From Eledone cirrhosa (Eukaryota), in assembly GCA_964016885.1 (NCBI GenBank), contig OZ024746.1:66340001-66404000 (forward strand): a DNA stretch of 64,000 nt, read 5' to 3'. Both the position numbers and the translations under genes were made by a program. Each line of letters opens with the position of its first letter. Position 1 is the first letter of the stretch. A model generated the notes under the pieces. It saw only the letters and a program-made list of their open reading frames with translations, had not been told where the DNA came from and made no database searches. Positions 3,519-46,848 of this stretch are shown piece by piece.

Positions 3519-3714
3519 ACGTAGGTCCCGGGTTGAGTCGGGGATAACCACAGTAAGTAAGGTACTCAATACATGGCAGAGTAAATTTTTTTTTATTTTA
3601 TAGAAGGAGCTTCTACAGGACTAGTACTGTTTCATTCAGATGAAATCTTCAGGAAGCTCCTGAAGATTTCATCTGAATGAAACAGTACTAGTCCTGTAGA
3701 AGATCCTTCTATAT
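3519..3714 (-). mobile_element. HHR-bearing fold-back element (arms about 3598-3653 / 3659-3714) in (TA)n
   Basis: Near-perfect palindrome with CTGAAGA-tttcatctgaat-GAAAcagta on both strands. Near-identical to the reverse complement of 46648-46848. Confidence 0.85.
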
Positions 3715-3929
3715 ATATATATATGTATTTATACATATGTGTGTATATATATATATATATATATATATATATATATATATATATATATATATATATATAT
3801 GTATTTATACATATGTGTGTATATATATATATATATATATATATATATATATATATATATATATATGTGTGTGTGTGTGTGTATTTATACATATGTGTGT
3901 GTGTATATATATATATATATATATATATA

Positions 3930-4095
3930 GTGGTGTTTCGTCGTTTGAGGTGACTAGTGTTCCAGTTGATAGAATGGCGGATCTGCCTGCTCATAAAATT
4001 AACGTGCAACTAGTTGATCATTCCACAAAGACTGGTAACGGACGAAGAAGTCATTGAGAGTTACAATTCATGTTGTTAAGGACAGTTCAGGCAAC
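3930..4095 (-). mobile_element. Decayed SINE body fragment (related to 53480-53790)
   Basis: Shares tgctcat(g/a)aaattaacgtg...gttgatcattccaca with about 53537-53580. Confidence 0.5.
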
Positions 4096-5130
4096 AGACC
4101 ATTAATATTCAATATCACAATATAATAAGGTTAACAACTTAGATTCATTCTTTCATTTCTACGTCCGTTTCAATACGATTACAATGATGCATACATATGC
4201 AAAAGTACTGGAAAGGATTAGTTATCAATTACCAACAATCTTACTAATGGGTTCGTCTTTTTAATTATATAAATCTAATTATATTATTGAGTGACGCTGT
4301 GTTGATTCTCTTAGAAAATATTCGTACACATACACACACACACATATATATATATATATATGTGTGTGTGTGTGTGTGTGTGTGTGTGTGTGTGTGTGTG
4401 TGTGTGTGTGTGTGTGTGTGAATGTGGGTGAGTGTGTATGTGTGCGTGCGTGTGTGTGCATGTGTATGTGAGTGTATATAAATAGATGAATAGATTACAT
4501 TGATAGAAAAGTTACATTTATGTGGGAAATATTAACAGTAACTGCCGAGATTATATTCCTGGTCTAAATATTATTGACCGGTGAGAGAGAGAACGGTTTG
4601 GAGAGCACCCCCACAAAACAACAAAGTAAATACAGGAATAAAAATATCTAGTGATTAATCTTATAGCATCACTTAGTTATAATGGAATTTGACAAGAGAT
4701 AAATTCATCATATAAAGTATCTCTTTATTTCCAATGCTTTTGTCGTAAGAAGATAATGGGGTCAGAAAGGATGCTGTTTGTCATAGGAATTATATTACAT
4801 ATAATTGGGCATTATCGGAAAAAGAAATTAGAATAGGATATATTAATGGGTACGTCTGATTCATTTTTGAATTATGTGAAACAAACATCTAAAAAAAAAT
4901 ATATATTTTCTATAATAAAAAGGGCAAATATGGGTGTATAACAAGTGAAGTGTGAATAATAATGAGAGAAAAGGGGAGGGATTGGAGTATTCTGTATATA
5001 CCTCACTCCCCAGGTGTGACAATTTTGAAATTATTTTGGTTTGGTCCATTCATGTGGATAAATGATGATTTAATAAATTCAACGATATAAATACACGATG
5101 TCATGATATATATATATATCCATATACAAA

Positions 5131-6437
5131 TCTTAAATACGTCAACATACACTCTAACCACACTAGGAGCATAATTAACTCAATAGTTAAAAGCGTCTCC
5201 AATAGAGTGTCCACCCTGTCGGCTAATAGAAATATCTTCAACCAGCACGCGGAATACTACAACTCCGCACTTGTAAACGCTGGTTACATTGAGAAGATTT
5301 CTTACATCGACCCACATAGAACCGTAACGCCGCTAAACATAACCGTACGCTTAGAAACGAACATAGAAGAAGTCACCACACCTAGGACAAATAATAACAT
5401 AAGACCCTCCGGAACCGTCAGGGCAGCCAGCGTCACACACAACTGTCAAGGAGATAAAGTCATACTCTCCAACCCCCAATAAGGACTCCAACTATCGCAC
5501 ATGTTTGCGTAGCAATAGAGACAAAAGACATAACGCCAATAGATTACTTGGAACGCCTATGACACATACGCCTGACCAAAACGCACCCAAAGTACCACCC
5601 AACCACAAAAACCTCACGACACACCGCAGAACCCGAAGTAGACCTGTCACATGGTACAACACCGCGTATGCTATACACGTCGTCACCAATATACGGGGAA
5701 CCTTCTTCAGGCCTCTCGAACAATCTTTTCCACGCACACATAAATGCCACAAGCTCTTCAATAGACACACTGTAAAATTCTCTTTCTACACAGCACCAAA
5801 TCTAGGCCACACAATAGCACACACTAATAGGACAAAAATACGAAAACACATGGTTGCCCCACAAAAAACCAACACCACAACCTAGAACGAGACCACACAC
5901 ACAACACAACACAAAAACCCACATACCAGTTCCACACCACATGCCACCAACCACCAACGTGCCACCACACCGGTCACACGCAACTGCAACTGCAAAAAAC
6001 GGGCCGAATGCCCACTAAACGGGGAGTGCCTCGTTAAAAACATTGTTTACCGGTGTGATGTCATAGCCGGCAATAAAGATTACTCATATATAGGTGCGAC
6101 ATCCACTACGTTTAAGGAACCCAGGTATAACCATAGAAGCTCATTTAAACATAGGCTGAAACGATCCCAAACCAGACTGGCCGATTTGATCTGGGATCTC
6201 AAGGACAGGAACATCGAACCCCAGAACCCGTGGTCAGTGAAAAGACGCGTGGCACAACTCCCCAGTGACAGAAACCACTGCAGGTTATGGCTGGCAGGGG
6301 CGGCAGAAATAATTAAATTAACATCTGCCATGAACTATAGGTCGGACATAATTGTCAATTGCAGACACACCAGGCTGAACACATTTTCCGCACAAACATT
6401 CGGCGGAGGGCCGCACACTAACCATGACCCAGCATAA
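5131..6437 (+). pseudogene. Penelope-like element ORF remnant (RT thumb, linker, CxCx5C, GIY-YIG endonuclease), 5'-truncated
   Basis: LKYVNIHSNH..SIVKSVSNRVSTLS..YNSALVNAGY; WYN..LFNRHTVKFS; CNCKKRAECPLNGECL..NIVY..YIG.T.TTFK..YNH.SSF; ..NCRH. One frameshift near 5480-5505 and one in-frame TAG at 5883. Confidence 0.9.
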
Positions 6438-45553: not shown

Positions 45554-46340
45554 ATTAAGATAGTAAAACAAAGAATCCTTTAATACATCAAAAGTTTTTA
45601 TTAGCCGACAATGTTTCGTCCTATTAAGGACTCATCAGGGCAATCAAAACAACAAGAAGTAATATCGGCAGATACAAGCCGGAAGCTCCGAAGAATATGG
45701 AGTGTACATACACTAAAGTCTTGCAAAAATATATGATAATAAAAATAAAAATAAAAATAATAAAAATATATAATGAGAATAACTAAGGATGTATATAACA
45801 TTAAGAACCATATTACAAATATAGTCCAAAGCAACTAACCTAAATCTAAACAAATTTGGTTATATAGAGCAGGAATTATATATAACACAATGCAATATAA
45901 CATGTTATATTACATTGTGTTATATATAATTCCTGCTATATATAACCAAATTTGTTTAGATTTAGCTTAGTTGCTTTGGACTATATTTGTAATATGGTTC
46001 TTAATGTTATATACATCCTTAGTTATTCTCATTATATATTTTTATTATTTTTATTTTTATTTTTATTATCATATATTTTTGCAAGACTTTAGTGTATGTA
46101 CACTCCATATTCTTCGGAGCTTCCGGCTTGTATCTGCCGATATTACTTCTTGTTGTTTTGATTGCCCTGATGAGTCCTTAATAGGACGAAACATTGTCGG
46201 CTAATAAAAACTTTTGATGTATTAAAGGATTCTTTGTTTTACTCTCTTAATTTTTTGGCTCTGTTTAACTGCATTGAGCTATACCTTTTACTGTCATTTC
46301 TATATTGCATTTGCATTCTTTATTCTATGTCCATACGTGC
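45554..46340 (+). mobile_element. Spacerless palindrome of about 700 bp (centre 45902/45903) with canonical HHRs at 45604-45641 (-) and 46164-46201 (+)
   Basis: gcc-CTGATGA-gtccttaataggac-GAAAcattGTC-ggc-t-AATAAA. The ORF track shows an identical 77-aa translation on both strands. Confidence 0.9.
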
Positions 46341-46355
46341 ATTGTTTTGGTTTTT

Positions 46356-46536
46356 TGGCAGTATCGGTAGAGGGTCGGACGACATGCTTTGCAGCAAAGA
46401 GTAACGGTCCTTTACGATCTGACTTCAAATCCCGCCGAGGTTAACTTTGCCTTTCATCCTTACGGGGTCGATAAAATAAAGTACCAGTAATGCACTGAGT
46501 AATTGCTGGCCTTGTGCCAAAAGTTGAAACAATTAT
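46356..46536 (+). mobile_element. SINE family 1
   Basis: Matches the family-1 sequence. Confidence 0.85.
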
Positions 46537-46647
46537 ACATATACAAACGTTTATACCTCATTACACAATGCTTCAAATGAACTATATCTTCCTCATATAT
46601 ATATATATATATATATATATATATATATATATATATATATATATATA

Positions 46648-46848
46648 TTTTATTTTATAGAAGGAGCTTCTACAGGACTAGTACTGTTTCATTCAGATGA
46701 AATCTTCAGGAGCTTCCTGAAGATTTCATCTGAATGAAACAGTACTAGTCCTGTAGAAGCTCCTTCTATGAAATAAAAAAAATTTACTCTGCCATGTATT
46801 GAATACCTTACTCACTGTGGTTATCCCCGACTCAACCCGGGACCTACG
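46648..46848 (+). mobile_element. HHR fold-back element (arms about 46648-46710 / 46716-46778)
   Basis: Near-identical to the reverse complement of 3519-3714; flanked by (TA)n. Confidence 0.85.

Follow-up and report, generated by a model that had tools for sequence, protein, structure and literature searches.

Within a 64,000-nucleotide stretch of the Eledone cirrhosa genome (the window; contig OZ024746.1, positions 66,340,001 to 66,404,000), two short insertions, designated copies A and B, fold back on themselves at one and the same junction, tcttcagg-agctt-cctgaaga, which lies directly 5' of a CTGAAGA core. The question raised by this locus is whether such a junction is inherited from a mobilised master, is dictated by the structure of an RNA, or is made anew at each insertion. 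A sequence-only reading of the window had described the identical junction at 3519-3714 and 46648-46848, the differing outer arm lengths of these copies, and a diverged relative at 34790-34961 (copy C) that folds at tcatc-ct-gatga, and each of these descriptions was borne out. Copies A (3520-3713, long arm on the minus strand) and B (46648-46848, long arm on the plus strand) are 97.4% identical across 194-195 nucleotides, their short arms end outwardly at about +60 and at +68, respectively, and copy C is a relative at 77-78% identity. In all three copies a long arm extends up to a (TA)n tract and is accompanied by a shorter inverted arm, as follows (element positions are numbered from a source element, L299):

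3450..3519, no strand: (TA)n target tract adjoining copy A where the long arm ends
3520..3658, minus strand: long arm of copy A, from +1 (3658) to an internal start site near +138 (3520)
3658..3713, plus strand: short inverted arm of copy A, from +5 to about +60
3659..3659, minus strand: base before +1 in copy A, G where the source has C, likely cap-derived
34790..34914, minus strand: long arm of copy C (sister family), beginning at +9
34913..34961, plus strand: short arm of copy C, from +5 to +53, with the loop contiguous with the short arm
46648..46711, minus strand: short inverted arm of copy B, from +5 to +68, with A at +60
46710..46710, plus strand: base before +1 in copy B, G, likely cap-derived
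46711..46848, plus strand: long arm of copy B, from +1 to +138, with G at +60 (46770)
46711..46761, plus strand: predicted type I hammerhead of copy B, with core CTGAAGA at 46717
46849..46887, no strand: (TA)n target tract adjoining copy B where the long arm ends

In copy A, the G at 3659 is also present in the short arm, within a two-nucleotide GA overlap, and that arm carries a single private mismatch, at 3703. Folding of copy B as a hairpin gave a z score of -22.7, which was equalled by none of 200 shuffled sequences, and a reversed-pattern control for the fold-back pattern returned 0 matches as compared with 572. Outside of the element, the flanks of copies A and B have in common only (TA)n, one copy of another family (in opposite relative orientation, at 84% identity) and two more stretches, of 107-155 nucleotides, that match at approximately 85% identity. 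Because these flanks share so little, and because the other-family copy is oppositely oriented, copies A and B represent independent insertions; a segmental duplication with shared flanks, the alternative raised in the earlier reading, is excluded by the same comparison.

The window harbors several additional fold-backs and hammerhead-like sequences. A palindrome at 45554-46251, with arms of 349 nucleotides, belongs to a different hammerhead-bearing family (family D) and is centred on a 4-nucleotide palindrome approximately 265 nucleotides upstream of the family-D ribozyme; the top copies of that family, identified with a query that favoured such copies, mostly extend past this centre, and a further family-D copy at 3175-3447 adjoins copy A. 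An inverted pair of HH9-like hammerhead matches, separated by a long spacer, is found at 12803-13232 (E values of 6e-6 and 1e-4, below the gathering score), and more CTGANGA..GAAAC cores are located in other repeat families at 10745, 11050, 38883 and 63114 (minus strand) and at 11329 (plus strand). Other fold-backs are found at 39313, 44557, 11532 and 44925, the first two of which have sequence in common and are without a loop.

Both copy A and copy B are short palindromes inserted by a young Penelope-like retrotransposon of the Hydra type. A DNA search of the 3.0-Gb animal genome in which the window lies returned 1205 candidates, 40 of which were scored. A full unit is present at L299, where two +1 sites lie 4251 nucleotides apart, and where a TATA box at -29, a +1 at AGCTTC and a predicted hammerhead spanning +1..+51 are followed, from about +170, by an open reading frame in three frameshifted pieces, in which RT motifs precede LVYICDV..SYIG. 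A single reading frame comprising an RT plus a GIY-YIG domain at the C terminus, without an N-terminal EN, is the arrangement of the Hydra clade, and the assignment to that clade was made from motifs and from a by-eye match of the L299 reading frame to the Hydra-1_Obim row of the PMC8557442 supplement. The motifs, also identified by eye according to section 11 of PMC8557442, comprise RWR, SDKTKN, CGLC or CDLC, and CMH, with no CCHH, and the CxCx5C linker of the clade is matched by CNCPDKTTC in the pieces at L303/L305. Homologues number 972, the best 120 of which display 41-54% identity; searches of the element's reading frame against Pfam, and a PDB sequence search, returned no significant match. 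The long arms of the copies inspected end in CCTACG followed by TA, as expected of insertion into (TA)n, and the unit of 4251 nucleotides exceeds the clade's general length of under 3 kb, which PMC8557442 gives as a tendency and not as a rule. Since L299 continues past +138 without (TA)n, the end of the long arm corresponds to an internal start site.

Exact-motif counts indicate at least 1041 copies genome-wide, 297 copies that keep sequence upstream of +1, and 564 matches that fold back within 30 nucleotides, the patterns being not strictly nested and a few loci being counted twice. The copies are dispersed and mostly head-to-head, and their source is of an autonomous type, as opposed to the head-to-tail tandem arrays and non-autonomous monomer that define non-LTR retrozymes. 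A reading frame beyond (TA)n in L027/L046 was considered as the element's own gene and was rejected, as it is part of a different Hydra-type family that had received the copy as an insertion (one of 30 loci). Nests are formed where copies lie, as they often do, in the (TA)n tail of another Penelope-like insertion (L014, L028, L182 and L046), and at L030 the flanks beyond the TA tracts open with an identical 17 nucleotides in inverted orientation. A second Hydra-type family (L269-L298) contains many uninterrupted reading frames of approximately 844 amino acids and is therefore probably recently active, while a 755-residue frame resembling RT and GIY-YIG, of a different Penelope-like type, adjoins a family-A copy at L300:2289-4553 (plus strand).

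The distribution of junctions was established from 90 fold-back loci on two chromosomes, for which exact motif matches were needed, scored from the first 100 rows listed (two rows being duplicates and eight lying outside of the scored set). These loci display 46 junction forms, the commonest of which is a loop-less AGCT overlap (16 of 90); the form found in the window accounts for 10 and its mirror for 6. Two fold-backs taken at random have an identical junction in 5.2% of cases, and at such frequencies the identity between copies A and B is only mildly surprising; given 46 forms among 90 fold-backs, the shared junction is a recurrent product and not an inherited one. An arm ends at -1, +1 or +2 in 85 of the 90, with only one extending further, and in sets not picked by junction a start at +1..+6 was found in 19 of 30 and 24 of 30 copies, which upholds the earlier contention that the junctions do not reflect random 5' truncation. 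Copies that pass +1 have ends scattered from -7 to beyond -1290. In the sister family (family C), 16 of 30 copies fold back at the same place, 12 extend upstream and two are of other kinds.

What distinguishes +1 is suggested by its surroundings and by one additional base. In family A, the window's own family, the TATA box TATAAATA is located at -29, ahead of a C|A step, and in 10 of the 12 family-C copies that bear upstream sequence TATAAATA lies at -30, with the C|A step again following. Where a junction contains an insertion, +1 is preceded by a G in place of the C of the source in 13 of 16 arms (p of 4e-6 against a frequency of 0.25). This G is not a product of generic tailing, because a T precedes none of 16 arms ending at +1, whereas of the arms that end at +2 it precedes 22 of 31 (p of 1e-6); among the latter arms, a G stands ahead of that T in 10 of 19. 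In family C the G is found on all eight arms of L104, L105, L110 and L113, and head-to-tail units also begin at +1 or +2, with the G present in L326, L327 and L328 and absent from six others inspected. In full-length L1 insertions, copying of the cap is marked by an extra G (PMC11702581), and judged from sequence +1 is likely a capped Pol II transcription start. The form seen in the window recurs because the G provides the second base of its GA overlap.

Summed depth falls at +1 in four of four runs, a measure derived from contigs only and unable to show a start. The promoter type should not be generalized, because the Penelope element of D. virilis is driven by an internal promoter that lacks a TATA box (PMC2377424). 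In both families a T often stands in place of the first transcribed A, in many cases with a G ahead of it (for example in L070, L073, L080, L119, L158, L161, L328 and L100), and this is possibly, as a matter of speculation, a misreading of a modified cap-adjacent adenosine. In a survey of the openly accessible literature, no paper was found that links inverted Penelope junctions to a copied cap.

The strongest of the rival explanations, itself unlikely, is that a single cDNA runs off at the RNA end, snaps back, extends on its own strand to a TA-rich stretch and joins the upstream flank. R2 proteins produce snap-backs of this type after full-length cDNA synthesis (PMC11371274), and the window's own form, with a two-base-pair GA/TC stem and an AGC loop, fits such an event equally well as it fits two cDNA ends; 31 junctions with a complete long arm fit snap-back too. 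Snap-back further predicts that lineage SNPs will agree between arms, and they do so in 14 of 14 cases (A61C in 7 of 7, and C50T in 7 of 7, including two neighbouring duplicates); that agreement equally indicates that, if two cDNAs are involved, they usually come from one source. The proposal of RT snap-back in the sequence-only reading may hold for the window's form, but many junctions require two cDNA ends. In 20 of 90 copies each arm is complete and does not overlap the other, and in 11 of those 20 the arms differ in terminal state, which excludes copying from a single cDNA, as snap-back cannot yield two complete arms with different terminal bases. Trimming affects the short arm in 31 cases and the long arm in 23 (p of 0.34); the 23 reverse-trimmed junctions of the 90 would require, and could come from, a later inversion of the loop between the arms, and for 16 of 90 a loop of only two nucleotides would be needed. 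At L198 and L202, the short arm stops hundreds of nucleotides from the end of the long arm.

A G at +60 is also troublesome for snap-back, as it is discordant between arms in 10 of 12 loci (9 long-arm only, 1 short-arm only and 2 both, against a background of approximately 0.7% per site), and likewise in L132 of the 90-copy set. Neither snap-back nor the copying of one RNA accounts for this discordance, which may reflect a mutation hot spot; ADAR editing was considered as a possible cause, and as a marker of two source RNAs the discordance is suggestive only. The outer ends of the short arms fall at +57..+73 in 79 of 80 copies scored (10 of 90 having been skipped for indels or truncation), often carry stuttered A-runs, and coincide with a site that also ends direct-orientation units such as L306, L312, L326 and L328. 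Both strands are nicked and extended by a purified Penelope-like protein, a predicted dimer, which uses two internal start sites and does not need ribozyme cleavage (PMC11167929).

The second rival explanation concerns the ribozyme. The hammerhead is a predicted one: CUGANGA, GAAA, NUH and stems I-III are all present, as in a type I hammerhead, with a six-base-pair stem I (+1..+6 paired with +46..+51) and a predicted cut after 46755 (+45). The G10.1-C11.1 pair that is highly conserved in hammerheads of Penelope-like elements (PMC4209133) is replaced by U-U in families A and C, and the stem III region forms a self-duplex at -15.2 kcal/mol. The window loci are absent among the 150 of 225 Rfam matches listed, which are mostly microsatellite-driven miRNA. 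Cleavage by the ribozyme was rejected as the cause of the junction, which at +1 lies 45 nucleotides from the predicted cut. 5' ends at +46 are rare: a pattern search run for that position alone gave 21 hits, of which 7 have no other obvious origin, 9 are ambiguous and 5 are explained by point mutations, or at most 16 such ends, an undercount in that joins ending in A are missed. In the small palindromes L336 and L346, both arms end at +46/+47, beside the predicted cut, and these may be copies of cleaved RNA. In L338, L343, L344, L348 and L350-L354 the stem I repeat links a complete short arm (+1) to a long arm at +46, as could arise either by end joining or by later deletion across the hairpin.

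Stem I could nevertheless set the RNA 5' end or the RT stop, through an RT stall or an exonuclease block and not through transcription initiation, as in the earlier suggestion that ribozyme structure fixes the fold-back. The positional part of that suggestion holds, in that stem I opens exactly at +1 in family A and family C alike, and the stem covaries between the two through a compensatory change of C-G to A-U. As a barrier, however, a stem of six base pairs within a monomer that folds no better than shuffled sequences (z of -0.72) is a poor candidate, 297 copies read through the site, and a stall leaves unexplained the extra G and the conserved TATA spacing, both of which favour a transcription start; this alternative is considered quite improbable.

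A third proposal, that the hairpin is part of the mobilised master RNA and is inherited by its copies, is already largely refuted and has only a very slight chance of being correct: several forms do recur (16, 10, 6 and 5 of 90), but 46 forms exist among the 90 copies, copies with G at +60 in common differ in their junctions, copies A and B have no arm-specific variant in common, the full-length source L299 is without the hairpin, and hairpin copies are without the TATA box. Equally improbable is self-priming on an antisense RNA template, which was put forward for palindromic head-to-head junctions of rotifer Penelope elements (PMC3846280), as the extra G is found 5' of the sense strand whichever arm is considered, and the TATA box points in the sense direction.

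The preferred explanation, which is held to be probable, is that these palindromic (TA)n insertions consist of two likely independent run-off cDNAs joined head to head, with their junction at a likely capped +1. Pol II would initiate at +1 and the RNA would be capped; the endonuclease would nick both strands of (TA)n, and one of the resulting ends would prime near +138 and the other at +57..+73. Priming at the 5' copy of these sites would generate short cDNAs that read through the uncut ribozyme and stop at the cap, often with an added C. The 3' ends of the cDNAs would then be joined through microhomologies (AGCT, GA/TC or AG), bluntly, or with templated patches, and a handful of junction forms would recur because few microhomologies are on offer. 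Priming in the 3' repeat would instead produce the approximately 30% of copies that extend upstream and are truncated at scattered points. A more general formulation is advanced tentatively, with a somewhat smaller chance of being right than of being wrong: an RT dimer may prime both target strands on one capped stretch of sense RNA, copy the cap twice and fuse the resulting ends, such that symmetric double target-primed reverse transcription (TPRT) would create the inverted 5' repeat of Penelope-like elements, and hundreds of genomic junctions would record the start, the cap and perhaps also a first adenosine that was modified and therefore read as T.

Many of these properties have precedents in the literature. 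The element resembles Hydra-clade elements such as Hydra-1_Obim and Penelope-13_HM (PMC8557442) in its C-terminal GIY-YIG domain, RWR in place of RWK, DKT, CxCx5C linker, CxxC and CxH motifs, (TA)n targets, hammerhead, inverted 5'-truncated copy and one-sided tail; Penelope-like elements as a rule have such inverted 5' copies and tails on one side (PMC8557442). It differs from Hydra-clade elements in the length of its unit (4.25 kb, because of a 3' UTR of approximately 1.9 kb), in a tail of approximately 70 nucleotides as compared with 30-40, and in that most copies are palindromes of the 5' end only, with a defined junction. Poseidon_Ac / PAc (PMC11167929) similarly starts reverse transcription at two internal sites, extends each target strand from a nick, and copies an uncut RNA template; it belongs to a different clade, and the available text of PMC11167929 does not treat inverted junctions or cap copying and calls the later steps unvalidated. 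In L1 twin priming (PMC11702581), the second target end likewise primes internally, an extra G is found at the complete 5' end and joining occurs by microhomology, but the two L1 cDNAs copy adjacent segments with an overlap or gap of 1-10 nucleotides, whereas both cDNAs here copy the same 55-70 nucleotides and both reach the RNA end. R2 snap-back (PMC11371274) likewise produces, once full-length cDNA has been made, a copy of the 5' end in antisense, but there one cDNA primes on itself. The Penelope elements of Adineta vaga (PMC3846280) display head-to-head pLTRs, palindromic junctions, a shorter inverted arm, and TATA and Inr-like motifs in the pLTR; they were read as products of antisense self-priming, while the evidence here favours capped sense RNA. 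How inverted pseudo-LTRs form, and whether from sense or antisense RNA, was left open in the available text of PMC3846280, and the accessible part of a retrozyme preprint (10.64898/2026.07.22.740005) contains nothing on junctions.

The class of the element and its inverted layout were already known, which limits the surprise of the present observations. What is added is a mechanism recorded in the junctions themselves, in which the RNA has a defined end that is likely capped and priming is likely double. The family constitutes a collection of hundreds of young junctions that bear marks at the level of single bases (an extra G on both arms, two priming sites and symmetric trimming), and those marks favour a model in which capped sense RNA is primed twice, and define how that model may be tested directly.
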